From NCBI GenBank assembly GCA_045805065.1, contig JBJMMA010000134.1, positions 1 to 25,317 on the forward strand: 25,317 nt of DNA, in the 5' to 3' direction. The notes beneath the pieces were generated by a model that saw only the letters and a list, made by a program, of their open reading frames with translations, made no database searches and had not been told where the DNA came from. The translations under genes and the position numbers were made by a program. Below are positions 1 through 15,045 of this stretch, in pieces; the stretch's first letter is position 1; each line of letters opens with the position of its first letter. The stretch is from Bdellovibrionia bacterium. Lineage in GTDB: Bacteria; Bdellovibrionota; UBA1018.

Positions 1-887
1 CGTTTCTGAATCCAGTTATGCGGATAGCTTCCCGGAGTAATGCTGCTTGGATCAAACGAGCTGACAATTCTCTCAATTGCCCGGTACTGGCTTTGCGGAA
101 TCTCCTTGTTGAATTGCAACGACTTGATCAGATAGCGAATGGCGCCGAGAATCTCGGGATTATTTCCGGCAGCAGCCTTCTGTGTCTGATGATGTGCGGG
201 AGATTCCAGGAACGTGATCTGATCGCCGGCGAGATCGCTCAGGAAGACGGAGCGGCCGGAAGGCTTGGCCAAATGGTGCGCTTCCTGGATCACGGATTTA
301 CCATCCGGCGGATCCGTGAGCTCAATCAGTCCGATCGAAAGCGAATCATTGTTCTGGCGTGCAAAATCCGGATCCCCTTCGACCGCGATATGCTTTCCGA
401 CCGTCGTCTTAAGCCCGATCACATCCCACTTGCTGACGCCCTCAAGAGTTTTGGGCATCGAAGTCTCCAGCCAGGATTTGAAACTTTTCAATTCTTCCGG
501 GCTCTCGGCTTTTCCATCGGCACGAGTCAGAACAAGATCGTAATCCTGCTCAGGCAGAACGACATTCGAAGTGATATTTGCCAAACGAGCAGGCTGAATG
601 ATTTCCTTGCCTTGCTCAGCAAGGACCTGATGCTTCACGAAATCGCCGTAAGATGCGGCAAGTCCCCCAGCAAGAAAAACACGGAGTCCTCTCGCCTCGG
701 CCTCACGAGCAATTCGACTGAACTCAGGAATCAGCTTGCGACGCTCGGCAATCGCTTGCTCGAGCTGCGAAGGATCGACAGGTATGGCAAGCGCCCACTG
801 AACGTGAACTAAGGCGAGCACGGTGAGCAAACCAAGCCTGCTCACAACGCGAAAACCTCTACTTAGCTGAAACCGGCCGAGTCTCAT
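1..887 (-). CDS. Putative exported protein with class II nucleotidyltransferase (CCA/poly(A) polymerase-like) head motifs; 3' end lies outside the window
   Basis: Manual translation: ATG at 887-885 preceded by GAGGGG (899-894). The frame stays open for 295 codons to the window edge: MRLGRFQLSRGFRVVSRLGLLTVLALVHVQWALA|IPVDP...RVFLAGGLAASYGD...QDYDLVL...DFARQNNDSLS...NPEILGAIRYL... It is missing from the ORF track because there is no stop in the window. The CDS call is well supported; the function is inferred from motifs. Confidence 0.8.
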   Translation of the reverse strand, partial: MRLGRFQLSRGFRVVSRLGLLTVLALVHVQWALAIPVDPSQLEQAIAERRKLIPEFSRIAREAEARGLRVFLAGGLAASYGDFVKHQVLAEQGKEIIQPARLANITSNVVLPEQDYDLVLTRADGKAESPEELKSFKSWLETSMPKTLEGVSKWDVIGLKTTVGKHIAVEGDPDFARQNNDSLSIGLIELTDPPDGKSVIQEAHHLAKPSGRSVFLSDLAGDQITFLESPAHHQTQKAAAGNNPEILGAIRYLIKSLQFNKEIPQSQYRAIERIVSSFDPSSITPGSYPHNWIQK

Positions 888-907
888 GCCATTCCCCTCA
901 ACCATTC

Positions 908-934
908 GTTTCGGCATTTGAAGGAAGCGAGTTA
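908..934 (-). promoter_or_regulatory. Putative sigma28 (FliA) promoter for the 887-start gene
   Basis: Minus strand reads TAAC-N15-GCCGAAAC, against the consensus TAAA-N15-GCCGATAA. It lies just upstream of the RBS. Confidence 0.55.
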
Positions 935-1015
935 AATCAAATGGGGTTAAGGCGGCGCTCACCCGGTGAAAAAGAACAGCTAAGCGTCAAAACTTTGTCA
1001 CTGAGAGAGAACACC

Positions 1016-1130
1016 GGCGCTAGACGTCTTTAAACTGCAGAATCCCTCGCTGCGACATCCTGTCGCAGTTTCCAGACGGCATCCTGCCTGAAACGGCTCG
1101 GGATTCTGCAGTTTAAATACGTCTAGCGCC
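1016..1130 (+). repeat. Hairpin element copy 1 (31-bp arms, 53-nt two-eared core)
   Basis: Arms 1016-1046 and 1100-1130 are reverse complements at 30/31. Core 1047-1099 is TCGCTGCGACATCCTGTCGCAGTTTCCAGACGGCATCCTGCCTGAAACGGCTC. Confidence 0.95.
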
Positions 1131-1217
1131 TGAGCTCACCCCAAGTCCCTGGCGACAGAGGACTGAGTAAAGTGTCTTCGGCTCTCTATGGCTAAGATGA
1201 TCGTCAAAGCTGATGAC

Positions 1218-1348
1218 TGAACAAACCGAGACGAAATGAAAAACCAGTTAAAAGCCGAGCCGTTCCCAGGCAGGATGCCGATTGGGAATGTGACAGGATG
1301 TCACAGCGAGGCCTTTAACTGGTTTTTCATTTCGTCTCGGTTTGTTCA
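1218..1348 (-). repeat. Hairpin element copy 2 (39-bp arms, core in opposite orientation; degenerate arm extension to about 1168-1400)
   Basis: Arms 1218-1256 and 1310-1348 pair at 38/39. The core on the minus strand is TCGCTGTGACATCCTGTCACATTCCCAATCGGCATCCTGCCTGGGAACGGCTC. Confidence 0.95.
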
Positions 1349-1397
1349 CGTCATGCAATCATGACGCGCATCTCAACCAAAGAGAGCCGGATACCTT

Positions 1398-3080
1398 TTA
1401 GAAGTTCACGCCAACGCGGAAGACGGTTGCGAAAACAGTATCTGTTACGTTCTCAGCACCGCTCGCGGCATTGGAGTACTTGAAGTAATCGCCAGGGAAG
1501 AGCAAGCCCAGGTCCAAGCGGAACATGAAGTACTCGTCCCACTGGAAAGCTGCGCCCGTGTCCCACTCGACGCCGAGTGAAGAACCTTGGTCTTTTGGAG
1601 CGTTGCGAGCTTCAAACTCACGCTTATACGTATTGAAGAAGAACGCGTCCGAAGCCTTGGCAGTTTGATTCGCCTTTGCCCAGAGAAGGCCCGTGTTGAA
1701 CGTCCACTTGTCGGCGTGCAACATCCCGGTCCAGCTCAAGTACGTTGCGTTCGTGATCGGATTGTCGAACGGAGAACGCAAGTTCGATTGATTGGCCGAT
1801 GGATTGTTCAGGGTGTTTGGTCCCAGATATCCGCTCAGGTTCAGGAGCTGATAGTTGAAGAGAATCGTGCCGATCTTATAGTTCGGGTTAAAGAAGTATG
1901 CCTTGAAGCCATTCACAGTCGTGCTGGAAGTGCCTGCTTGGCCAGGAGCGCGTCCACCGCGGATCTGCATCTCCCATGGATCATTGATGCGCCAATCGGC
2001 TTCTGCAGCAACGGCCACGGTTGAGTAATCAACGCCTGCGACCTTACCGCTCGTGATTGGCACTTCAGCAGCAAGACGGAGCTTGCCGAGCTTCTTTTGC
2101 GCGTAGAGGTCCCAGGTATTGTACGACATGCCTGCCGTGCTCAAGAAAGGACTTGCCGTCGTATTGCTGGTTGGGTCTTGAGGACCGGTTCCAGGGTTTG
2201 CAAGATTCGGAGGATTTGCGCCGTTGTCTTGTGAACCACCTGCGATACGGCGAACAAAGTTCACGCCGCCTTCGAAATCCTCTTCGAGGTTTTCGTATTT
2301 CAACTGAATGAAGTAATCAGCAACCGAGCCACTGCCCAAGCCTGGCGTGCAGAGATTGGTTCCAGCGCCGCCCGTGAAGGTACAAGTGCCGCCCAATGCA
2401 TTGCCTGTGGAATAGATGGCAACACCCGGGCTGAAACTAAATGATCCGAATTTTGAGGTCAGGCGAATCTGATCGCCCGTCGACTCATAACGGTCCCATA
2501 GATTGTCGCCCGCGTTCCAGAAAACACCCAAGCCCCAGTTCAATGGAGCGCGACCCAAGGTGATCACACCGAAATCAGTGGTGAACTCACCCCAAAGGCG
2601 CTGAGCCGAAAAGAACGCGCCACGGGACTGCGTGGAATAGAACTGACGTTGGTCAAAAGTATAAGGATATGCATCGCCAAAGAGCCCGTATGCAGGATTG
2701 CCTGCCCAGAACTCTGATTTGATCACGATGTTATCGTTCACAATCGCTTTTGGCTGAAGCTTCAAGAAGAGCGTTTCAAAAGTAGCGTTGTTGTTGCCGC
2801 CACCCGGAATGTAGTAGCCGCTTGGATACTTATTTTGCACACCATTCACGGTGTTTGTGACAATGCGAGCATTGTCGACAGTAGAACCCGTCGCCGATCC
2901 ATCCATCGTGTAGTTTTTGATGAAGTGGAATTCTGTGCGAAATTTCCCGGACCAATCCAGCTCCAAAGCATGAGCAGAGGAAGCGGCTAATGTCGTCGCA
3001 GCCAGAAGCGCGATCGAAATTCCGATACTGAGTTTATTAAATCTGAGTTCTGGTTTTACAAACGCACGTTTCAGGTTCAT
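1398..3080 (-). CDS. Outer-membrane beta-barrel protein, resembling the TIGR04551 / Bdellovibrio major OMP (PopA, Bd0427)-like family
   Basis: Signal peptide ending SSAHA|LELDWSG, alternating aromatic beta-strands, a GRAPLNWGLG motif and a C-terminal beta-signal FRVGVNF. The family assignment is from recalled motifs and was not searched. Confidence 0.8.
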   Translation of the reverse strand: MNLKRAFVKPELRFNKLSIGISIALLAATTLAASSAHALELDWSGKFRTEFHFIKNYTMDGSATGSTVDNARIVTNTVNGVQNKYPSGYYIPGGGNNNATFETLFLKLQPKAIVNDNIVIKSEFWAGNPAYGLFGDAYPYTFDQRQFYSTQSRGAFFSAQRLWGEFTTDFGVITLGRAPLNWGLGVFWNAGDNLWDRYESTGDQIRLTSKFGSFSFSPGVAIYSTGNALGGTCTFTGGAGTNLCTPGLGSGSVADYFIQLKYENLEEDFEGGVNFVRRIAGGSQDNGANPPNLANPGTGPQDPTSNTTASPFLSTAGMSYNTWDLYAQKKLGKLRLAAEVPITSGKVAGVDYSTVAVAAEADWRINDPWEMQIRGGRAPGQAGTSSTTVNGFKAYFFNPNYKIGTILFNYQLLNLSGYLGPNTLNNPSANQSNLRSPFDNPITNATYLSWTGMLHADKWTFNTGLLWAKANQTAKASDAFFFNTYKREFEARNAPKDQGSSLGVEWDTGAAFQWDEYFMFRLDLGLLFPGDYFKYSNAASGAENVTDTVFATVFRVGVNF

Positions 3081-3263
3081 TTATTATTTACCTAGCCACT
3101 ACAGCTACAATTGACAGCTACTATGTTGACTGGGAATGTTGGCCAGAAATGGCTACCGATAGTTGTAATGTCAGTAGCCTCTAAGGTAGGCTACTTCGAA
3201 GCAAACTATGCCCAGAATTAAGCCGGTTGTATTGACCCATCCCAGCACAGTCAAGGAGATAAA

Positions 3264-5615
3264 ATGCGCCTGCACCGCGTCGTAATCGGAGGCGTCGCCC
3301 TTCTTTCCATCGCTTTCTGTATTTATCTGGGAGTTTTGTATGGCCAGCTCAAAACGGCCTTCAATCGTCAGGTACAGTTTGTTCCGACTCGGATCTATTC
3401 TGACGTCACTCGAATCGCATCACCTGAAACCCGCGCTTACGTGGAAGAAAAGCTGAAAAACCTCGCCTACGTCACGTCAGTCAGTGGAAATGAGGTCCAT
3501 TTCCGCCTTCATTCGAGCGATTACCCTACTTATCTGATTCCCGACGGGCATCCACAGCTGACGGTGATGGGATCCGCTAATGCAGCTCAAGACGCCTCCC
3601 AAAGCGAAGTCGTTTTGTCTTTCAGCGGAAACGGCGCGGATGATCTCCTTCAGTCCGTTCATCTCGCTGGAAAAGAAGTCCAGGACGTCTACCTTGAGCC
3701 TGAACTCGTCACGACTCTGACTCGCAGCGGAAAGCTTCAAGACGGTAAAAAAGAAATTCGCACCCTTCTGAAGTTCCAGGAAGTGCCAGCGTTGATGTGG
3801 AAAGCCATCATCGCGACAGAAGACAACCACTTCCTCGAGCACAGCGGACTTGATCCTCGCGGATTGGGACGCGCTATCCTGGTCAACTTGAGAACCCGCT
3901 CGCTGAGCCAGGGCGGAAGCACCATCACTCAGCAGCTCGTCAAGAATCTCATGGCTCGCCACACGCGAAACATCGTTCGCAAATTCAACGAGCTCTTCTT
4001 AGCACTTCTCTTGGAAGGAACGTTCGACAAAGAAACCATTCTCGAGCGTTATCTGAACGAAGTTTACCTCGGACAGGTCGGAAGCTTTGAGATCCATGGC
4101 GTGGCGGAAGGCGCTGAGCATTTCTTCGCCAAAGACGTCAAGGACCTCAATCTGGCTGAAATGGCCATGATGGCAGGACTGATTCGCGGTCCAGGCTACT
4201 ACTCTCCTTATCGCTATCGCGAGCGCGCGCTCGAGCGTCAGCGCTTTGTTCTCAAGCGAATGGTTGAAACGGGCCAGATTGCGCAATCGGAAGCCGATGC
4301 AGCGCTGAAGCAGCCGATTCGTCTCGCTCCTCCATCCACTGTAGCCAACAAGGCTCCGTACTTTACGGACTTCGTGAAGGCAGAGCTCATTCGTCAGCTT
4401 CAAGGCAAAAAGACTGAAGAAGAAATCGCAGAATCCGGCTTCCGCGTTTACACAACGCTGGATCTGTCGCTCAACTCCGCAGCTCAGACCGCTGTTGCTC
4501 GCGGCATCTCAGGCCTTGAGAAGAACATGAAGCTTGGCGCAACGGATCGCCTGGAAGGCGCACTTGCCTCCGTGGATCACAACACAGGTTACATCCGTGC
4601 GCTCATCGGCGGTCGCAGTTACGCGGAGTCCACCTTCAATCGCATTCTCAATATGCGGCGCCAGGTGGGTTCGACTTTCAAACCGATTGTCTATCTTGCC
4701 GCTCTTCAAAAAGGACGCGACCCAAAAGGCGTTCCATACGGCCCCGGACATCCTGTCGAAGACTCTCCTTGGACTCTGGTTTACGATCATGGTCGCCAGG
4801 AATGGGCTCCTAAGAACTACGAAAAAGAATTCATGGGCTGGATCTCATTCAGAACGGCTCTTGCTCACTCCATCAACACGGCGACCGCTCGCCTGGGCTT
4901 TGAAGTGGGAATCGATAACGTGATCAAAACGGCACGCGCCTTGGGAATTGAGGCAGATCTTCCGTCTGTTCCTTCCCTCTCGCTCGGTGTCGCAGAGCTT
5001 ACGCCTATTGAGCTTCTTCAAGCTTACGCGATCTTTGCAAACCACGGCGTTCAAGACGAGCTGACCGTGATTCGCTCGATCACTCATGAAGACGGAAGCG
5101 ATTACGCTCGCTTTGTCTATCATCCGAAGCAGATCTTCAATCCGGGCCCAACCGATCTTCTGACGGACATGCTGCAATCGGTTTTCACCGAAGGCACCGC
5201 CAAAGGCGCCGTTCAAATGGGCTTTGATCGTCCAGCGGCCGGGAAGACCGGGACCACGAGTCATCACCGTGATGCCTGGTTTGCGGGCTACACTCCGCAG
5301 CTCACCACCGTCGTGTGGGTGGGAATGGACCAGCCTCGTGCCGACTCTAAAGTGAAGCTCACGGGCGCGAACTCCGCTCTCCCGATCTGGGCCGATTACA
5401 TGAAGAAAGCGCTTGAGGGTGAGCCACCAACTCCATTCCCTCTCAGCCAGTATCTGAGCAACGTCTCAATCGATACTCGAAGCGGATTGCTCTCGGATGG
5501 ATCTTGTTTTCCAACCCAAGTGATCACTGAGAAGTACGAAAAAGAGAACGAGCCAAAAGCATCCGGATGTTCTCCACTTTGGCCAGACTCGACACCAAAA
5601 ACAGTCGCACAATAG
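3264..5615 (+). CDS. mrcB: Class A penicillin-binding protein (PBP1B-like transglycosylase/transpeptidase)
   Basis: N-terminal TM helix. GT51 motifs EDNHFLEHSGLD, GGSTITQQLVKN, RKFNE and YLNEVYLG. Transpeptidase motifs STFK, SIN and KTGT. GGAG RBS. An insertion between TM and GT suggests PBP1B; the symbol is less certain than the family. Confidence 0.9.
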   Translation: MRLHRVVIGGVALLSIAFCIYLGVLYGQLKTAFNRQVQFVPTRIYSDVTRIASPETRAYVEEKLKNLAYVTSVSGNEVHFRLHSSDYPTYLIPDGHPQLTVMGSANAAQDASQSEVVLSFSGNGADDLLQSVHLAGKEVQDVYLEPELVTTLTRSGKLQDGKKEIRTLLKFQEVPALMWKAIIATEDNHFLEHSGLDPRGLGRAILVNLRTRSLSQGGSTITQQLVKNLMARHTRNIVRKFNELFLALLLEGTFDKETILERYLNEVYLGQVGSFEIHGVAEGAEHFFAKDVKDLNLAEMAMMAGLIRGPGYYSPYRYRERALERQRFVLKRMVETGQIAQSEADAALKQPIRLAPPSTVANKAPYFTDFVKAELIRQLQGKKTEEEIAESGFRVYTTLDLSLNSAAQTAVARGISGLEKNMKLGATDRLEGALASVDHNTGYIRALIGGRSYAESTFNRILNMRRQVGSTFKPIVYLAALQKGRDPKGVPYGPGHPVEDSPWTLVYDHGRQEWAPKNYEKEFMGWISFRTALAHSINTATARLGFEVGIDNVIKTARALGIEADLPSVPSLSLGVAELTPIELLQAYAIFANHGVQDELTVIRSITHEDGSDYARFVYHPKQIFNPGPTDLLTDMLQSVFTEGTAKGAVQMGFDRPAAGKTGTTSHHRDAWFAGYTPQLTTVVWVGMDQPRADSKVKLTGANSALPIWADYMKKALEGEPPTPFPLSQYLSNVSIDTRSGLLSDGSCFPTQVITEKYEKENEPKASGCSPLWPDSTPKTVAQ

Positions 5616-5620
5616 AGCTT

Positions 5621-5752
5621 GAGCAAATCAAAGCGAGTTGAAATTAGATACTATAGCCCTCGTTGTGACATCATGTCACATTCCTTTTGGCCCATCCTGG
5701 GCCGGAACGACTCGGGCTATAGTATCTAATTTCAACTCGCTTTGATTTGTTC
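5621..5752 (+). repeat. Hairpin element copy 3 (36-bp perfect arms plus 3 bp, 54-nt core)
   Basis: Arms 5624-5659 and 5714-5749 are perfect reverse complements. Core 5660-5713 is TCGTTGTGACATCATGTCACATTCCTTTTGGCCCATCCTGGGCCGGAACGACTC. Confidence 0.95.
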
Positions 5753-5843
5753 TGCTTTCTGACGTTTTTGGAAGCGAGCTACCAAACCGAGATACCTCGA
5801 TTGAGCCTCTAACGGTCTCAGAGAAGCACGCGTGATTTATCGT

Positions 5844-5990
5844 AAAAACGTAGGCAGATAAAAGAGCGTTTCAATTAAAGACAAAAGCCCGAGTCATTCC
5901 CAGGCAGGATGCCGAAAGGGAATGTGACAGGATGTCACAACGAGGGATTTTGTCTTTAATTGAAACGCTCTTTTATTTGCCCACGTTTTT
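5844..5990 (-). repeat. Hairpin element copy 4 (47-bp arms, core in opposite orientation)
   Basis: Arms 5844-5890 and 5944-5990 pair at 44/47. The core on the minus strand is TCGTTGTGACATCCTGTCACATTCCCTTTCGGCATCCTGCCTGGGAATGACTC. Confidence 0.95.
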
Positions 5991-6001
5991 GAACGATTCA
6001 C

Positions 6002-8062
6002 TCAGGCCGCTTTGTTCACTTCTCGCTCTTCAGCAACAGCAGGTCCATCGACTAGCTCAGCAGAAGTTTGCGTCTTGTTTTGCTGAGGTTCCTGATTTCC
6101 CCGAACCAGAGTTTCAAGCTTCTGGGTTACGTCGGAGAGCTGTATCGCATTGTTACCGAGCTCATTGGAGATCTCGCTGGATCCTGATGCAAGCGTTGCA
6201 TTCTCTTGAGTGACTTCATCGATCTGGCTCAATGCCTTTGCGATTTCTCCCATCGCTTTCGCCTGCTCGCGCGAAGCCACAGCGATTTGCGTGACCGACT
6301 GATGGGCTTCCTGAACCCCAGCGAGAATCGTCGTCAGCGCGTCGCGGGCTTCCTCAGCAGACTTCACACAGTTAGTCGTTTGGGCCTTGGATCGCTCGAT
6401 GGACTGTGAAATGGTTTGGCGCGACTTCTCAACCAGGCTAGCCACTTCTTCCATCGATTGCGCGACGGTTTGCTGAATTTCCTGAGCGGTCTTTCCCGTC
6501 AATTGAGCGAGACGTCCCACTTCCTCAGCCACAATGGCAAAGCCCTTGCCGTGCTCGCCTGCGCGTGCGGCCTCAACAGAGGCATTGAATGAAAGAAGCT
6601 TGGTCTGGAATACAATGTCGTGAATCGCGCGGGTGCGCTCCTCGATCGTAGCGATAACTTTGCTGATTCCGGCAAGCTCCTCATGATTGCGGGTCATGTC
6701 TTTGCTTGTCTTCTCGCTCTCTTCTCCCATCTGCTGGATGACACCCATCAGGCGATCCATCACTACGGCGCCGTTTTCGGCAGCCACGCGTGATTTCGAG
6801 GATAGAGCTTCCGTGGTTTGGGTCGACTCAAGATTTTTTTGGATCGTCGCATTCACCTCTTCCATCGTGGCTGCAGTTTCCTGCAGAGCCGCAGCTTGCT
6901 GGGTTGCCGACGCAGTCAGGCGTTGAGATGACTCCTGAGCCTTTTCAGCCTGCTGGGAGATGGCCTGAACGCGAGCCTTGAGCGCACGTGCGAGCTGCTC
7001 GAGAACACGAACCACGCTGCCCGTGAACCATCCAATGATCAATGACGTCACCAAAGTCACAAAGAGCGTGACCATCACGATGATGCGACGAAGGTGATAC
7101 ACTTCGGCACGAAGCTCATCCTGATTCAGGCTTGCAGCCACATGCCATTCCACTTCCGGGAAATAGCGATAGATTGCCAATTTGTCCTGGGGCTTCTTTG
7201 TCTCAGCATTCAGCCAACGATAATTCATGGAGCCATCAGGGTGATCCATGATCTCTTTGAAAATAAGCTTTCCATCGAGATCCGTCTCGCTCAGCACGTT
7301 CTGACCTTCCTTGGTTGGATGAAGGATCATCGTGCCCTTATTGTCCATGATGTAAAAATAACCCGTATCCAGGATCTTGGTGGTTTTGAGATTTTGCTGG
7401 ATCAAGGTGTAGGAATTGTTCTCGCGGGTCCCGATAAAGAAAGCACCTACAGTGCGCCCGCCTTGAATAATCGGATGATAGGCGGTCACGAACCAGTCGT
7501 TCACGACGAAAGCACGACCCAGATACTCTTTTCCCTCTTGAAGGGTTTTATAGACAGGAGATGTAGGTGGAATGAAAGTTCCTTCGGCACGCGTGCCGTC
7601 GGTTTTCTTGATGCTGGTGGACGCGCGAACAAAGCCTTGCGGGGTCTCAACAAAGAGAGTGACTTCGCTTCCTGACTCTGCCGAGATTCGGTCGACGATG
7701 TCATGATCCGTGACCGGCTTTCCATCAAAGAGAAAATGAGGAACCTTGGCCTTCAACTTCTCGTGAGTGATTTGGTTCTCGATCTCGCGCTCGGCTCCGT
7801 TCGACTCATCGATTGCGAGCTTTGAGGAGTATTTCTTGAGATATTGGTTCAGTACCAGCTTCTGGCGCTCCAGGCTGTCCTGGTAAAGAGCGTGGACCGA
7901 TGCCTCAACCGATCGAAGCTGCATCGTGAGGCTTTCCATGGCCAGCTTCTCGACGATCTGCGAGGCCAGTCCATAGGTGATGGCGCCAGTCAGAGCCATG
8001 CCTCCTAAGAGAAACAGTGAAAATCCCAGAATGAACTTCGATCTCAGTCCTAGTTTTTTCAT
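6002..8062 (-). CDS. Methyl-accepting chemotaxis protein with Cache_3-Cache_2-like periplasmic sensor
   Basis: Two TM helices flank a Cache-type region ([35 protein letters not shown]). The signalling tip reads [30 protein letters not shown]. Confidence 0.95.
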
Positions 8063-8329: not shown

Positions 8330-10372
8330 ATGAGCAGTAAGCGGTTTCTAAAATCAAATTCCAGCTGGAGAACGGGAGTGATGTCCGTTCTTCTTCGCTA
8401 TGAGAAACTAGTCATGGTTCTCCTGGCATCCGCTGGACTCACCGCTGTTCTTCAACATATCGAGTTTAATCTTCTGGAAGCAGGCCTTTACGACCTCAGA
8501 GTGAAAGCCTCTTTTCCTTCACGCTCCAGCAAGGACATCGTCCTGGTCACCATGGATGATCAGACCATCAAAACGCTGGACCAGCCTGCCCCCCTATCGC
8601 TTGATACTCACGCGAAATTCATGGAAGCGCTTGCGCGTCTCCATCCTCGTGGCGTGGGTTACCTGATCGACATGAATCAGGTCCGCCAGACCAATACGGA
8701 TCTTTTTCAAGGCGAATGGCCCCAGCGCTTTCTCGATGCCACCCGCCAGCTTGAGCAGAGCGGTACAACGGTTCTTTTCGGAACTCCTTATGATGTAACG
8801 GGTGAAGTAGTCGCGCCTTATCCATTGAGCACTCTTCCCCACGCGCTGGCTTTCATCCACAAGGATGGAACCGTCTTCGCAGAAGACAAAGTGACCCGTC
8901 GCGCGCTCGTGACTTTAAATGACAAACCAACCTTTCATATCGATTTTGCTGAACGCCTGGGCATGATCCCGAGCGGACAAGTCCCTCAGGGAACGTTTTC
9001 AATTCCGGAGATTGGAACGCAGTTCTTTTTCTTCCGCTACAGAGGCGACACCGTCATCCCTACCCGTCAGCGCGCAACGCCTCCTTACGAACGCATCTCG
9101 TTTCATGAGATCCTGGATGGAAATTTCAAGAACGATGCGTTCCGAAACAAGATTCTCCTCGTAGGCTCGTTTCTCCGCGAGAGCCCAAGCGACTTCACTT
9201 ATACTCCCTATTCGAGGACCGATTTCGTCAATCCCAAGCTTCTGGTCCATGCGCACATCCTGGACTCTGTCATTCATGATGATGGAATCACCCTTCTGCC
9301 AGCCTGGATCAACTGGGTCATCACGTTTGTCATGAGCTCGCTCGTGTTCTGGTGGGTGTTGAACCTGACCCCGCTTTACGGAGTGTTCTCCACGATCTCG
9401 CTCTCGATCGCTTTCCTGGTTATCAGCCAACTCATCTTCCAGGCTAACGGGCTCTGGATCCGTGAAAGCCAGCCCCTGGTTGCGATCCTGATTGGTTATT
9501 ATCTGGCGGTTCCATACCGTCTGATCCGTGAATACAAGAAGCGCTGGGACTATCAGCGCAAAAACGAGCTTCTCCTTCAAGTGGAAGAGCTCAAGACCAA
9601 CTTCCTGAACCTTGTGACCCATGACCTCAAGACCCCGGTCGCGCGAATCCAAGGACTTGCCGAAGTTCTTCTGCGAAAAGCAAACGAGCGCTTGGTTGAT
9701 CGTGACCGTGATACGCTTCAACACATCATCGGCTCGACGGATGAGCTCAACCGCTTCATCTCGAGCATTCTGGAGCTTAGCAAAGTCGAGTCCCAGAGCC
9801 TCAAGCTTCAGATCGAATCCAAGGACATCAATCAACTCATCGAGCGCTGCGTGGAGGGCTTCAAAGCTGCCGCACGCGCTCGTAACATCAAAATTCAGCT
9901 TCAGCTGGATCCTCTGTTTCCAGTGCGCATCGACGCGGGCCTGATCTCCAAGGTCATGAACAACCTCGTGGACAATGCGATCAAGTATTCGCCAGCCGAG
10001 TCAGAAGTCCTGATCCTCTCGCGCGAAACCGAGAACTGGATCGAGATCATGATCCAGGACCGCGGCATCGGGATGACTCCAGAAGAGCAGGAAAGCCTTT
10101 TCACCCGATTTTATCGCGCGAAAAACAATACGACTGCCGAAATTTCCGGAACCGGCCTCGGACTCTACCTCACCCGCTACTTCATCGAAGCGCACGGTGG
10201 ATCGGTCGAAGTCGAGAGCGAAAAGGGCAAAGGAAGCACATTCAAGATTCGTCTGCCAATCGAAGGCGCGCAAAGCGACTCGATCGTCCAGACGCAAACC
10301 CGATCTGTTGGCCTGACCCTTCGGATCGGCACATTGGTTAAAAGTTTGTCGAGCAAGAGCTCAAGTACCTGA
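8330..10372 (+). CDS. CHASE2-domain sensor histidine kinase
   Basis: CHASE2-like region (DIVLVTMDDQTI; NKILLVG; LVHAHILDSVI) followed by three TM helices. H-box THDLKTP, N-box NLVDNAIKYS, G boxes DRGIG and GTGLGL. The true start may be a slightly downstream Met. Confidence 0.93.
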   Translation: MSSKRFLKSNSSWRTGVMSVLLRYEKLVMVLLASAGLTAVLQHIEFNLLEAGLYDLRVKASFPSRSSKDIVLVTMDDQTIKTLDQPAPLSLDTHAKFMEALARLHPRGVGYLIDMNQVRQTNTDLFQGEWPQRFLDATRQLEQSGTTVLFGTPYDVTGEVVAPYPLSTLPHALAFIHKDGTVFAEDKVTRRALVTLNDKPTFHIDFAERLGMIPSGQVPQGTFSIPEIGTQFFFFRYRGDTVIPTRQRATPPYERISFHEILDGNFKNDAFRNKILLVGSFLRESPSDFTYTPYSRTDFVNPKLLVHAHILDSVIHDDGITLLPAWINWVITFVMSSLVFWWVLNLTPLYGVFSTISLSIAFLVISQLIFQANGLWIRESQPLVAILIGYYLAVPYRLIREYKKRWDYQRKNELLLQVEELKTNFLNLVTHDLKTPVARIQGLAEVLLRKANERLVDRDRDTLQHIIGSTDELNRFISSILELSKVESQSLKLQIESKDINQLIERCVEGFKAAARARNIKIQLQLDPLFPVRIDAGLISKVMNNLVDNAIKYSPAESEVLILSRETENWIEIMIQDRGIGMTPEEQESLFTRFYRAKNNTTAEISGTGLGLYLTRYFIEAHGGSVEVESEKGKGSTFKIRLPIEGAQSDSIVQTQTRSVGLTLRIGTLVKSLSSKSSST

Positions 10373-10398
10373 GAGAGACCTAATAAGGAGAGTAGAGT

Positions 10399-11928
10399 AT
10401 GTTCAAAGTTCTCGTAGTTGATGATGACGCGGATCTGAGATTGACGGTTTCTTCTGCTTTGTCAGAAAACCACTACTCCGTCGAACAAGCTCGTGACGGC
10501 GAGGAAGCCGTGAATCGCGTTCGCGCCGGCAAGTTCGACCTCGTTCTCCTGGATGTGAATATGCCTCGCATGAGCGGGATGGAAGCGCTGAAGGAAATCA
10601 AGGCGCACGATCCATCCATCATCGTCATCATGCTGACCGCGTTCTCGAACGTCCGTGATGCGGTCGAGTCCACCAAGGAAGGCGCATACAACTATCTCGA
10701 AAAGCCGATCAAGGCAGAGAACCTGGTCTACCTCGTGGACAAGGCGCTCCGCGCCCATCGCATGGTCAAGAACATCGCCCTCTCCTCTCCTATGATCAAG
10801 CTGCCGAACGGCACGGAGTTCATCGGCCAGAGCACGGAAATGAAACGTGTGTTCAGCGTCATCGACAAGCTCTCCCGTGTCGATACGGCCGTTTTGATCC
10901 GCGGTGAAAGCGGCACCGGCAAGGAACTCGTTGCCTCCGCGCTTCACTACAACAGCCCTCGCAAGGATAACCGCTTTGTCACGATCAATTGCTCGGCTAT
11001 TCCCGACACTTTGATCGAAAGCGAGTTCTTTGGTCACGAGAAAGGCGCCTTCACGGGAGCTGACTCCCGTAAGATCGGGAAATTCCAGTACGCCGATGGC
11101 GGCACCCTCTTTCTGGACGAAATCGGCGACATTGCTCCCGCAATGCAGGTGAAGCTCCTCCGCGCCCTTCAGGAAAAGCGCTTCACGCCAATCGGCTCAA
11201 ACCGCGAAGTGGAAGTGAACGTCCGCATCGTGGCCGCAACGAACCGCAATCTTGAGGAAATGATCAAGAAAGGCGAGTTCCGCGAAGATCTCTTTTATCG
11301 CTTGAACGTCCTTCCGATCCAATTGCCCCCTTTGCGCGAGCGCAAGAACGACATCAAGCACCTGGCTGAGTACTTCATTGAGAAGTTCAATGCGCAATAC
11401 TCCAAGAACATCTCAGGCTTTGCCGCGGATGCCATGGAATTGCTGATGAGCCACGCCTGGCCTGGCAACATCCGTGAGCTTGAGAACGTCATTGAGCACG
11501 CGTTTGTTATCGAAAACCAGACACAGCTGACAATCGCAAGCTTGCCTGAGAGCCTGACGGGCAGATCACTCACCCGCTCCTCTGGCGTTCGCCCAGGCCT
11601 GACTACGGCGATGAACGATGATGCGGAAGATCTATCCGATCTCGACGCCGACGATGAGTCCGGCGAAGAGCTTGTGACCGGGGAAATTCTCGCAACCGGC
11701 ACCGCTGGCATCCCGACCTTCAACATGGATAGCAAGGGCTTCACCCTGGACATCAATCGTCTGGACTTCCAGGCCAACAAGGAAGAGTTTGAGCGTCGTT
11801 TCCTGATCAGCGCTTTGAAAGCCTTCAAAGGACGGATCAATCAAACCGCGTTGCACGCCAACATTCCTAAGAAGACATTGCTCCGTAAGCTCCAAAAATA
11901 CGGGATCAACGCACGCGATTACGTGTAA
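10399..11928 (+). CDS. Sigma54-dependent (NtrC/AtoC-family) response regulator
   Basis: REC domain (VVDDD, LLDVNMP, KP), AAA+ domain with [21 protein letters not shown] and [10 protein letters not shown], and a C-terminal Fis-like HTH. AAGGAG RBS. Confidence 0.97.
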
Positions 11929-11956
11929 GTAATCGCGACGGCTAGACCAAAAAAAC

Positions 11957-11990
11957 AAAAAGGGCATCACCCGCCAAGGTGATGCCCTTT
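11957..11990. terminator. Bidirectional intrinsic terminator
   Basis: AAAAGGGCATCACC-CGCCAA-GGTGATGCCCTTTT between convergent genes, with A and T tracts on both sides. Confidence 0.9.
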
Positions 11991-12014
11991 TATGTTTTCA
12001 GCTTTTAAGCGAAC

Positions 12015-12885: not shown

Positions 12886-14178
12886 CTATAAATATTCTTT
12901 AAAAAGCTTATCATAATGTTCCTGAATCTTCTGCAAATCGACACGATTCAGGAAATTCGAAAAGCTCATCCACACCGTTAGGCCACTCATTTCCTTGAAA
13001 TGTGGCGGCAGGTAATGAGGCTCATCCACGATGCCTTCCTTATATTTTTGATAGAGCAAGGGTACATCGTCCACATGTATTTTACCGGCAAACAAAAATG
13101 GGATGAGATCGGGCCGCCCGGCTCGAATAGCCGTCCGCATGAAATTGTAGTTCTCGATGAAACCGCGGCAGTAAGAGATGTCCTTGGTAAAAGGAGCCCC
13201 GCCCTCCACCGTTCCGCCCCGATAAACTCGCTTTACGTTATAGAGGCACTCGGTTTCCGAATAACCCTCAGTCCGGTAAAACTCGAGAAGCTCAAGAAGA
13301 TTGGCTCCGTCTTCAGCCTTGGCGATTCCCAGAATCCGATCGTTAATCTGCCGGGCTCTTCGGGGATAGGAGCGAAAGGTAAAGATCTCCATGATGACCG
13401 CCAGACCTTCCTGCGTCGCTGAGCAACGAGGAGGCCCTTTGGAAAGCCATTTGGCAACATGTTGATTGTTCCCGTTCTGAGTGGTTCCAACGTGGACCCA
13501 ACCTTCATGCACCTCAAGAACGTCAATATCGCGAGCCGAGAACATCGCACCCGCTTTGATTTTAACAGTATCTCCCCCTGCTGCGGCATCGGCCACGATT
13601 CCGTCAGAGAGCTTGGCTTGAACTGTTCCATCCGGAAAGTAGTTCTTAAAGCGCTTATTGAGTTCTTCCACGACGTCTTCAGCGGGAATATCTTCAACAA
13701 ATTTGGGCCCTGGCATGTTCTCCTCAAGGCCACTGAGAATTTCATAGAGGTGCTGACCCAGCTCCAGAATCGTATTTTTCTCGTCAAAGAGATGATCCTT
13801 GGGTGAGCCGTAAAGTTTCTTGCTCAGCTCCCAAAACCGGGAGGTGCCGCGTGCTAAAAGCATGTCGACAACGTCGATGTATTGCTGCGAAATCGAGACG
13901 AGCAGCCTTCCCATCGAATCATCCGCCCCTAGCGTCAGCTGGATATCGGTGATGATGTCCCGCAGCTCTTCCTTTTTTCTCTCTGCATCAAAAGAGAGCG
14001 GAAATTTCTCGTAGTATTCAGGCCCGATCTTGGGCATCTCGCGGAATTTGCTTTTCCGGAGCTCCTGCTCAATGGATGGATCCCACTTAATGGCATCCAG
14101 AATGCGAATCGGCTTTTGTGCCTCCACAATCCGCACTGATAGACGCTTGATCTTCTCTTTGTAAGTGGTCCAGACCAT
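12886..14178 (-). CDS. QEGLA-motif protein (DUF1704/MATCAP-like HExxxH metallopeptidase family)
   Basis: HEGWVH, TQEGLA and FTKDISY motifs. The start is uncertain (14178 MVWTT chosen; the ORF extends to 14205). Confidence 0.88.
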   Translation of the reverse strand: MVWTTYKEKIKRLSVRIVEAQKPIRILDAIKWDPSIEQELRKSKFREMPKIGPEYYEKFPLSFDAERKKEELRDIITDIQLTLGADDSMGRLLVSISQQYIDVVDMLLARGTSRFWELSKKLYGSPKDHLFDEKNTILELGQHLYEILSGLEENMPGPKFVEDIPAEDVVEELNKRFKNYFPDGTVQAKLSDGIVADAAAGGDTVKIKAGAMFSARDIDVLEVHEGWVHVGTTQNGNNQHVAKWLSKGPPRCSATQEGLAVIMEIFTFRSYPRRARQINDRILGIAKAEDGANLLELLEFYRTEGYSETECLYNVKRVYRGGTVEGGAPFTKDISYCRGFIENYNFMRTAIRAGRPDLIPFLFAGKIHVDDVPLLYQKYKEGIVDEPHYLPPHFKEMSGLTVWMSFSNFLNRVDLQKIQEHYDKLFKEYL

Positions 14179-14278
14179 GATGATATTTATTAATTGTGTA
14201 TGCATCGGTCATATCTGGCAACTCATCTTGCCGGCTGATGACACGTGACCCATCAGCTGCCGTCAATAGACTGACGAC

Positions 14279-14964: not shown

Positions 14965-14987
14965 TAAGAGCCTGCCGAAAATAAAAA

Positions 14988-15022
14988 AAAACGGCTTGAA
15001 CCGCGAAGGTCCAAGCCGTTTT
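14988..15022. terminator. Bidirectional intrinsic terminator (after rpsI and the orphan)
   Basis: AAAACGGCTTGaACC-GCGAA-GGTcCAAGCCGTTTT, with an A9 tract upstream. Confidence 0.9.
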
Positions 15023-15045
15023 GATTTTGTAAGAATAAAGTCGGA

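Follow-up and report, generated by a model that had tools for sequence, protein, structure and literature searches.

A two-eared hairpin repeat family neighboring TwoAYGGAY and nested between REP units in a Bdellovibrionia genome

The described systems closest to the elements analyzed here are the TwoAYGGAY motif, the repetitive extragenic palindromic (REP) sequences and REPINs with their REP-associated tyrosine transposases (RAYTs), and the CsrB-type RNAs. The elements are long-stemmed hairpins capped by two small "ears", four of which (W1 to W4) lie between positions 1016 and 5990 of a 25,317-nucleotide stretch of DNA from a Bdellovibrionia bacterium (assembly GCA_045805065.1, contig JBJMMA010000134.1, positions 1 to 25,317 of the forward strand), called the window throughout. 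They belong to a real, strongly structured repeat family, and what is new in it is that TwoAYGGAY and REPIN/RAYT are joined in one architecture.

TwoAYGGAY was first listed, in the part of the paper available to us, by Weinberg et al. 2010 (PMC2864571), and it has been a motif without a function since. According to the available portion of a preprint (bioRxiv 10.64898/2026.09.22.753630), median copy numbers per Pseudomonas genome are 11-23, doublets are divergent in 68.4% of cases, and REP arrays lie downstream of TwoAYGGAY in SBW25; the expansion is called "mobile-element-like", its mechanism is left unresolved there, and a proposal is cited that the loops bind Csr/Rsm proteins. RAYT is not named in the TwoAYGGAY literature that we found, as far as its available text goes and preprint supplements aside; with the latter restriction, we also found no literature that joins REPIN or RAYT with CsrA or Bdellovibrio in the sense proposed below. 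In Rfam, a single clan (CL00106) holds both TwoAYGGAY and CsrB.

The repeat of CsrB is CAGGA(U/A/C)G, and the CsrA consensus is CANGGANG. REPs of E. coli and Pseudomonas carry a conserved GTAG 5' of the hairpin, and the REPIN concept is reportedly that of Bertels and Rainey. HUH enzymes of the IS200/IS605 type insert strand-specifically 3' of a short target, on the lagging-strand template.

In this study, we examine the structure, distribution, ends and turnover of the family. The best reading places the elements in the TwoAYGGAY class, as a local branch of it, and holds that in this genus a class element became the center of a REPIN. For the full proposal, a TwoAYGGAY-class element carried and amplified as a REPIN center and exposing CsrA-like loops, we judge the chances to be about even.

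A structured repeat family beside TwoAYGGAY

The initial annotation took the four elements for part of a dispersed family with a conserved center, and this holds well beyond the window. A covariance model built from 26 sequences over 116 positions (R1) has 35 matches, and not four only, in the draft genome to which the window belongs (G000; 262 contigs, 4.22 Mb). The comparison panel comprised 61 genomes: G000, a second genome of the same genus (G001; 95% complete, 490 contigs) and 59 other relatives. R1 matches ten times in G001 and one to three times each in 12 of the 59 other relatives, hence in 14 of the 61 genomes overall. A strict regular expression returns 14 copies in G000, and a full-element nhmmer profile returns 42 loci without overlap (E < 1e-3), among them some end fragments. 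With several copies located at contig ends, the real copy number probably exceeds these figures. A phylum-wide R1 search, run with stricter filters and with only 24 candidates scored per genome, gave matches in 5 of 22 other genomes of the order and in 0 of 128 outside the order. The exact core pattern occurs at 10 loci among 185,579 species genomes. Two are true R1 members, both in a record labelled uncultured Bacteriovoracaceae, and the other eight are different GGA-hairpin pairs or arrays and were rejected as family members.

Single-sequence and alignment folds agree on the structure first proposed from the window, namely a long duplex with a TC/TC internal loop and a three-way junction bearing two small hairpins, and the cores of the window elements can be aligned with each other. 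In the 26-copy alignment, pairing is found in 95.3% of cells as compared to 71.8% in shuffles, and 246 cells are changed on both sides as compared to 66, with double changes in 34 of 43 pairs. None of 500 shuffles attains the observed pairing or double-change values, and sliding the partners lowers pairing to 31-48%. Covariation is present in both hairpins and in the basal stem. The folds and the covariation both give the TwoAYGGAY architecture of two hairpins on a basal stem.

The core consists of two short hairpins on the three-way junction. One strand carries CATCCTG tips; on the opposite or GGA strand the tips read CAGGAUG, CAGGAAG or CAUGGAUG. Among the 70 GGA-strand tips of the 35 G000 copies (Table 1), GGA is kept in 68, the variable base is the one right after GGA, and the GGA-to-GGA distance is 23-25 nt. 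The exact AYGGAY sequence is therefore not present in both loops: as CAUGGAUG it accounts for 2 of the 70 tips, and CAGGA(U/A/C/G)G, which is one base shorter, for 66.

These tips bear on the earlier statement that the family could be assigned to no named one. Rfam TwoAYGGAY (RF01731; gathering threshold 43 bits) matches the strand opposite to CATCCTG at 29-36 bits, and members from the same order that exceed the threshold share the architecture, which leaves that statement unsupported. W4 scores 35.6 bits (E 0.027) on its GGA strand, below the cut-off, and a search of the whole of G000 yields five matches at E <= 1, the best at 35.7 bits and none above the cut-off. The threshold is passed in 2 of the 61 genomes, G042 (49.1 bits) and G030 (43.5 bits), both of the same order as G000; their copies have perfect stems of 37-45 bp and loops reading CAUGGAUG, CAGGGAUG or CAGGAUG. 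In copy number and arrangement the family also behaves as TwoAYGGAY does, with 35 copies in G000 and eight doublets that are all divergent in GGA orientation (two in the window, those on contigs C170, C247, C51 and C262 of G000, one in G001 and one in G054). The family neighbors TwoAYGGAY with a loop one base shorter, and is not a member by Rfam score. The TwoAYGGAY class, in our description, is a dispersed palindrome in which the only sequence-conserved part is a hairpin pair with CA(U)GGA(U/A)G loops 23-25 nt apart, on a stem of 30-50 bp that is free in sequence yet kept perfectly complementary.

Further subtypes in G000 (C247, C91, C181 and C89) have unrelated stems of up to about 50 bp. 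The subtype at C181:2695-2830 and C89:1164-1301, which R1 misses, combines roughly 50-bp perfect stems with CAUGGAUG plus CAGGAUG or CAGGACG loops, and gives the best RF01731 scores in G000 (35.7 and 29.1 bits). Directly upstream of the C247-type doublet, a region at C247:13432-13788 (L015:433-789) has a sub-threshold match to the Rfam cspA thermoregulator (56.2 as compared to 78 bits).

By their letters, the element loops look like CsrA sites on one strand. The single CsrA gene of G000 (C164:1923-2081) neighbors fliW and a flagellin-N gene; as 58 of the 61 genomes have CsrA, its presence cannot discriminate among them. As stated in the available part of a published study, hag of B. subtilis is repressed in a reporter by the CsrA of B. 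bacteriovorus (PMC13443453). No Rfam CsrB match was found in the window. CAUGGAU-type hairpins occur in two or three of the seven flagellin leaders of G000, and the GAGCAUGGAUGCUC and GGCCAUGGAUCGGCC hairpins in the 5' leaders upstream of C143:1891 and C143:555 are candidate sites of a FliW-CsrA circuit. Listing all GGA hairpins of the genome that lie outside the elements gave 53 matches, 24 of them near a possible start, and proved too noisy to use, and a start-site hairpin of Peptidase_S51 near the C10 copy was set aside as a single anecdote. In other phyla, loci L088-L097 (Spirochaetota, a Leptospira biflexa metagenome-assembled genome, Cloacimonadota, Christensenellaceae) carry GACAGGAUGUC / ACAGGAUGU hairpins repeated 2-6 times. 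These arrays resemble CsrB-type multi-site RNAs, with one weak Rfam CsrB match (25.3 bits), and to our knowledge no RNAs of that type have been described in these phyla.

REP ends, a RAYT-like gene and turnover

The initial annotation had contrasted the elements with REPs, a contrast that is not supported. Full-length copies extend beyond the coordinates given at first and have REP-type ends with GTAG and GCGTCA. Aligned with their flanks, full copies measure about 240 nt and consist of the two-eared hairpin between two inverted REP units; at least 14 copies with both ends are present in G000. On the CATCCTG strand, 5' to 3', the layout is CCAAAAGGTGGTCGCCT(C/A)CTTTT(T/G)GTAGCGCA...GCGTCA, about 12 nt, the long stem, the core, the long stem, and the mirror image, the REP hairpin AAAAGGTGGTCGCCTCCTTTT being followed by the GTAGCGCA..GCGTCA arm. 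The arm, TTTTTGTAGCGCA, contains GTAG, which on that strand is found 3' of the REP hairpin, and the REPs of G009 have GCGTCA without GTAG. The units are short imperfect palindromes, extragenic, multi-copy and in inverted pairs, as REPs are. A pattern search of the 61 genomes with up to 2 mismatches counted 40 in G000, 24 in G009, 12 in G001, 10 in G002 and 6 in G003, with 1 in three genomes and 0 in 53, and the reversed-pattern control gave 0 everywhere. Within 200 nt of an inner element lie 35 of 41 REP-motif matches in G000; of the remaining six, three border the RAYT gene and a contig end truncates another.

That gene, P0001 (Table 1), is the flanking HUH gene which the initial annotation proposed to look for: a RAYT-like gene on contig C111 bounded by the same terminal repeats, with the REP pair upstream of it forming a short REPIN without the two-eared core. 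P0001 scores 65.9 bits against NCBIfam REP_Tyr_transpos (E 3.4e-18; cut-off 80 bits) and 17.5 bits against Pfam Y1_Tnp (cut-off 23 bits). Its only PDB match is 4ER8, the E. coli TnpArep (E 2.5e-6), in an alignment that sets HFH against HMH and YVYRNPVK against YIYINPVK, and thus aligns the HxH and tyrosine motifs. Orthologues at 64-66% identity occur exactly in G002, G003 and G009, and those in G009, G002 and G008 are flanked by related hairpins. Repeat and RAYT clade co-occur: six or more REP matches are found in G000, G001, G002, G003 and G009, and close RAYTs in all of these except G001. G000 has six more Y1_Tnp-like genes, on contigs C34, C152, C251, C243, C226 and C143 (loci L002-L007, L019 and L020). 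Two of the six are 55-61% identical to the RAYT on C111, and none has the studied REP motif in its locus.

In this genus the inner hairpin is combined with the REP/RAYT system, the composite being found in G001 too with a different core subtype. The REPs of G009 and the RAYT-flanking REPINs lack the two-eared core, and single REP units occur alone in G009.

Comparing the two congeneric species (coding identity about 75-84%) provides the empty-site check that the initial annotation called for, with copies present or absent at matching sites. At the site of W2, G001 has the orthologous gene end and the same stop codon, then an ordinary terminator and no element. At the C10 site, G001 has 25 nt where G000 has a composite. 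Where G000 has composites at C103 and C72, G001 has one REP unit alone; the G000 copies contain this unit and, attached on its GCGTCA side, an arm, the hairpin and another REP in inverted orientation. The comparisons for C159 and C60b were left out because the loci were rearranged or without synteny in G001. Contig sets from four soil metagenomes yielded short low-depth pieces, loose ends from other copies, and no bridge over an empty site.

The largest difference is at C180:24899-28296 (L009:1400-4797), where a 3.4-kb block bounded by two same-orientation composites is absent from G001. Its open reading frames (ORFs) of 145 and 825 aa belong to no Pfam family, and in G001 the flanking convergent genes meet with overlapping stop codons (CTAG). 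The junction, TTCTAGTAGCGC in G001 and TTCTA-A..insert..T-TAGTAGCGC in G000, is readable as a TA duplication (n = 1). Such a junction would suit a DDE-type (Tc1/IS630-like) miniature inverted-repeat transposable element with terminal inverted repeats of about 30 bp and a TA duplication, next to which the RAYT would be coincidental, and the ends of the composites are conserved inverted repeats (CCAAAAGGTGGTCGCC..). However, there is one such junction only and the C10 and W2 junctions have no duplication. The species difference at C103 and C72 is one REP plus the center rather than a whole unit bounded by terminal repeats, single REP units stand alone in G009, and the REP family tracks the RAYT clade. 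We consider this explanation very improbable.

Conversely, at all five G001 element loci examined there is an element at the matching G000 site. In these five pairs every stem is unrelated and the core subtype differs in three, and hence the sites are reused and their contents exchanged. Shared sites by themselves would be expected of a stand-alone family of small RNA genes, a CsrA/RsmA sponge that is vertically inherited and immobile and whose copy number changes by duplication and loss; the spacing of the GGA loops and the near-universal presence of CsrA in the panel agree with this idea too. It is, however, decidedly unlikely in view of the unrelated stems and exchanged cores, of copy numbers ranging between 0 and 35 in a single family of genomes, and of sites that have an element in one species but not in the other. 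Each unit also has only two GGA sites, and no promoter signal was found in a scan of positions 800-6200.

The stems themselves carry a distinct signature. They are about 94% complementary within a copy, whereas arm identity between copies has a median of about 0.6, as compared to 0.82 for the cores. Within-copy arms in G000 comprise 1231 Watson-Crick pairs, 21 wobble-type mismatches on the CATCCTG strand and 10 on the other strand, 42 transversion mismatches and 10 gaps; the figures for 26 copies from other genomes, in an alignment fitted to the model, are 953, 30 and 20, with 64 others. Double changes in the stem are of the transversion type in 117 cells and of the transition type in 80. In a blast test for flanking or foreign origin, stem arms matched only the partner arm and sister copies in G000. 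As read from these alignments, the pattern is that of a DNA palindrome with arms evolving in concert, and not the G.U-rich pattern usual for structured RNAs. One copy departs from it: in C51b (one of two mutually inverted copies 1.9 kb apart, C51a and C51b, at C51:8356-8507 and 10259-10411) the arms are non-complementary (9 matches), and the 3' arm is 88% like an arm of C51a, which suggests recombination or conversion between copies.

A pattern of this kind raises the question of whether single-stranded DNA is the active form. The T-shaped hairpin could, by analogy, be nicked by an HUH enzyme and its arms reset in each round by hairpin-primed copying; the inverted terminal repeats (ITRs) of parvoviruses such as adeno-associated virus (AAV) are T-shaped hairpins processed by the HUH protein Rep. 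In keeping with this view, stems are nearly pure Watson-Crick in every genus (1231 pairs as compared to 31 wobble-type, and 953 as compared to 50), one-sided changes are rare next to the double changes, transversion-type double changes exceed transition-type ones, an HUH gene with matching REPs is in the genome, and gain or loss occurs beside the fixed GCGTCA site. Nevertheless, this explanation is clearly unlikely, as elements occur in 9 genomes in which no RAYT homologue was found, REPs and REPINs occur without the two-eared core, and the identity of CsrA-type loops across phyla is left unexplained. Moreover, template-switch "quasipalindrome correction" during ordinary replication would yield such perfect arms without selection and without a dedicated enzyme.

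Orientation, strand and the proposed mechanism

Positions relative to genes follow a rule. In copies with an intact left REP, the stop codon of the upstream ORF lies within 3 nt of the element in 11 of 18, and the right end is no more than 2 nt from the stop of a convergent gene in 5 copies. Stems start 1-16 nt past stop codons, and the left flank (T)AAC precedes CAAAAGG in 9 of 14 full copies. Of the 21 loci in the other genomes for which both flanks were called, 13 are bordered by convergent genes, and tandem gene contexts outside G000 give orientations of 2 versus 3. Strand-specific insertion 3' of a short TAA-containing target is one explanation that would account for the orientation rule.

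Several observations weigh against a TwoAYGGAY-class element amplified as a REPIN center and acting through CsrA-like loops. By a crude longest-ORF script, which called an upstream ORF in 32 of 34 listed G000 loci, that ORF is co-oriented with the CATCCTG strand in 24 of the 32 and in 16 of 16 doublet members, so that the neighboring gene reads the element in the CAUCCUG sense and not in the GGA sense. A U.G wobble is fixed in 25 of 26 copies, again on the CAUCCUG strand, and together these two points argue against simple CsrA binding in the 3' untranslated region of the neighbor. The promoter scan of positions 800-6200 gave 2 sites as compared to 2.8 expected, none positioned for the GGA strand. 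On the side of mobility, the possible TA duplication, seen at a single insertion, is not expected of an HUH enzyme; the likeness between the inner stems of different composite copies is only about 60%, which implies that most copies are old and that there was no recent burst; GTAG stands 3' of the hairpin and not 5' of it as in E. coli REPs; and both curated cut-offs, NCBIfam and Pfam, lie above the scores of P0001. Nor does the gene follow the element everywhere. No P0001 homologue was found in G001 (0 of 4 candidates in a genome 95% complete in 490 contigs) despite its 10 elements and 12 REP matches, 9 of 13 other element-bearing genomes lack one at E <= 0.001, and G003 and G009 have REP and RAYT but 0 R1 matches. 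These exceptions imply that the inner hairpin and the REP/RAYT system are separable and that the inner hairpin is not generally RAYT-dependent.

The strand evidence would suit a different function, in which the gene-sense RNA with its CAUCCUG tips is a 3'-end module placed after the stop codon that terminates transcription and protects the mRNA end. Its pyrimidine-rich UCCU loops would be anti-Shine-Dalgarno-like, and the CsrA-site likeness of the other strand would be a by-product. Besides the co-orientation, the start of stems directly past stop codons and the conserved U.G pair, this view draws on wobble-type mismatches that favor the CATCCTG strand (21 versus 10 in G000, 30 versus 20 in the other genomes), on the ordinary terminator that takes the place of W2 in G001, and on terminator-like matches inside the cores. 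We regard it as doubtful all the same. The tandem contexts outside G000 show no such preference (2 versus 3), the orientation rule is equally explicable by strand-specific insertion at a target that contains a stop codon, and one or two fixed positions account for most of the wobble excess. In addition, all Rfam matches and the look-alikes of other phyla are on the GGA strand, and the conserved letters A, GGA and G suit CsrA sites.

Returning to the TwoAYGGAY-class element as a REPIN center, the following mechanism may be envisaged. The RAYT would cut single-stranded DNA beside the REP hairpin and so spread or remove the unit, and this action would set the unit directly behind stop codons in a fixed orientation. 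The stems would be kept perfect by a DNA-level process, either template switching or repair of the folded strand, rather than by RNA-level selection. If the GGA strand is transcribed, its two loops could bind one CsrA dimer, as a decoy or as a local regulatory site, and the A-rich/T-rich clamp around the core may end transcription both ways.

In a stronger version, which we think unlikely, these are cargo-bearing REPINs: a domesticated RAYT copies a two-loop CsrA-decoy module to dozens of gene ends, and the perfect stems are the footprint of a single-stranded DNA hairpin intermediate. Were this so, the number of module copies would adjust how much of the global regulator CsrA is free, or the module would wire neighboring convergent transcripts to CsrA. 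It would also offer a mechanism for the TwoAYGGAY expansion in Pseudomonas, as yet unexplained, and connect a selfish-DNA system with control at the post-transcriptional level. More generally, nesting in a REPIN may explain how motifs such as TwoAYGGAY multiply, since a sister family is found here in a fixed architecture between two REP units, with an identifiable RAYT gene. Filled, half-filled (REP singlet) and empty sites in two congeneric genomes, with the junction at a fixed GCGTCA, make the question of spread testable. The orientation rule, together with the almost complete lack of G.U pairs, in turn calls into question whether the strand modeled in Rfam, or RNA at all, is the active form.

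The window elements and the described systems

Inspection of the sequence confirms the four elements at 1016-1130, 1218-1348, 5621-5752 and 5844-5990, and an inverted-repeat search recovers the long stems of the initial annotation, with arms of 46-47 nt that are 83-94% complementary in all four. These arms are 1000-1046/1100-1146 in W1 (47 nt, 83%, the near-perfect 31-bp part being 1016-1130), 1218-1263/1303-1348 in W2 (46 nt, 91%), 5621-5666/5707-5752 in W3 (46 nt, 91%) and 5844-5890/5944-5990 in W4 (47 nt, 94%). The boundaries first drawn were too narrow, as W2 reaches 1170-1400 through decayed outer arms and the decayed 3' outer arm of W3 runs to about 5803 (Table 1).

Table 1. Location of the window elements, adjoining genes and RAYT-like gene, with RF01731 matches and loop-tip counts
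Feature	Location	Strand	Details
W1, inner two-eared hairpin	1016..1130	+	31-bp stem; two CATCCTG tips on +; GGA-tip strand is -
W2, decayed full composite	1170..1400	-	inner hairpin 1218-1348; nhmmer HMM positions 2-234, 170.6 bits; R1 119 bits
W3, inner hairpin 5621-5752 and decayed 3' outer arm GCTACCAAA	5621..5803	+	R1 112.3 bits
W4, inner hairpin	5844..5990	-	47-bp stem; R1 120.2 bits
Gene without Pfam family	1398..3080	-	stop codon abuts W2
Class A penicillin-binding protein gene	3264..5615	+	Pfam Transgly and Transpeptidase; W3 after stop
Methyl-accepting chemotaxis protein gene	6002..8062	-	Pfam Cache and MCPsignal; convergent with the penicillin-binding protein gene; W4 after stop
P0001, RAYT-like HUH/Y1 gene, 218 residues	C111:8410-9063	-	REP hairpins at 8334, 9071 and 9173
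RF01731 match	C135 (G000)	GGA strand	34.7 bits
RF01731 match	C247 (G000)	GGA strand	32.1 bits
RF01731 match	G023 copy	GGA strand	41.4 bits
RF01731 match	G001 copy	GGA strand	36.0 bits
5' tips	35 copies (G000)	GGA strand	CAGGAUG 30, CAGGAAG 2, CAUGGAUG 2, CAGGACG 1
3' tips	35 copies (G000)	GGA strand	CAGGAUG 18, CAGGAAG 14, CAGGAGG 1, GGA lost 2 (W3, C214)

CATCCTG tips are on the + strand in the elements at 1016 and 5621, and the elements at 1218 and 5844 are reverse complements. Both REP ends are present, though decayed, only in W2; W3 has its decayed 3' arm, and little is left in W1 and W4. W1 scores 105.9 bits with R1 at 1016-1132, and its weak outer-arm remnants span about 977-1178. The outer arms of W2, GGCTCTCT/AGAGAGCC, still pair, its REP hairpin has decayed to AAAAGGTATCCGGCTCTCTTT, and it starts within or just past the TAA stop of the gene at 1398-3080. 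W3 begins 5 nt past the TAG stop of the PBP1-type gene, and its first tip is mutated to CATCATG, so that GGA is gone on the opposite strand. W4 ends 11 nt from the TGA stop of the chemoreceptor gene and has CAGGATG tips on the + strand, the one that gives the sub-threshold TwoAYGGAY match. Both window doublets are placed between convergent genes, and each member adjoins "its" gene.

As the initial annotation held, there is no transposase among the 17 window ORFs scanned against Pfam, and the RAYT-like gene is elsewhere in the genome. Readings of the elements as attC sites, CRISPR-like spacers or retrons were dropped, since the center is conserved, the arms match nothing else and the window has no nearby reverse transcriptase or Cas gene; in particular, integron attC sites have conserved R''/R' ends and a variable center, and the inner element has a conserved center and variable stems. 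Matches to miRNA precursors in Rfam (MIR7125 and others) are artefacts of long perfect hairpins. Elsewhere in the window, an ORF at 12886-14205 (-) has a full-length Pfam MATCAP match (394.8 bits), a family of microtubule-associated tyrosine carboxypeptidases, here in a bacterial host. Short GC-clamped hairpins followed by T runs at gene ends (11951-11998 and 14983-15027) are likely intrinsic terminators and unrelated to the family.

Compared with described systems, the likeness to the AAV ITR is one of analogy only. In both, two small "ear" hairpins sit on top of a long stem and there is an HUH enzyme in the picture; the elements are nevertheless without sequence relation to the ITR, and are chromosomal, internal and dispersed rather than terminal. 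The CsrB, RsmY and RsmZ RNAs share hairpins that show CAGGAUG or CAGGAAG, here in pairs, with a distance between the two that a single CsrA dimer could span. Unlike these RNAs, the family has no more than two sites in each unit, is scattered in dozens of copies rather than encoded by a single gene, has a basal stem that is perfect and very long, and shows no promoter or terminator of its own that we detected, and the CsrA of its host is of the FliW-partnered flagellar type.

With TwoAYGGAY the family shares two sequential hairpins with GGA-centered loops on a common elongated basal stem, many copies whose number differs widely between relatives, physical association with REP sequences, and divergent doublets (8 of 8 here, as compared to 68.4% in the available account of Pseudomonas). 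It differs in its shorter loops, A-GGA-U/A in place of AYGGAY in 66 of 70 tips, in the lack of any G000 copy at the Rfam cut-off (best 35.7 as compared to 43 bits), and in a junction of its own, formed by the TC/TC loop and a helix of 3 bp in which the other strand has a fixed U.G. Extensions reported in the accessible text for Pseudomonadota TwoAYGGAY, namely three extra hairpins, a pseudoknot and 5-6-mer arrays, were not seen here. The host, moreover, is a member of Bdellovibrionota, and the element is nested between two inverted REP units with a cognate RAYT.

The REP/REPIN likeness, finally, lies in a short palindromic hairpin with a conserved flank that is extragenic and multi-copy and whose inverted pairs make a long hairpin, and in a RAYT-like gene that is flanked by matching repeats and co-occurs with the repeat across genomes. 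GTAG is 3' of the hairpin here, unlike in REPs of the E. coli and Pseudomonas type, and P0001 differs from RAYTs in scoring below the NCBIfam equivalog cut-off and in a C-terminal extension of roughly 70 residues. Unlike a REPIN, the composite holds between its REPs a structured cargo of 130 nt that has a conserved core of its own and that, in other genera, is found without REPs.

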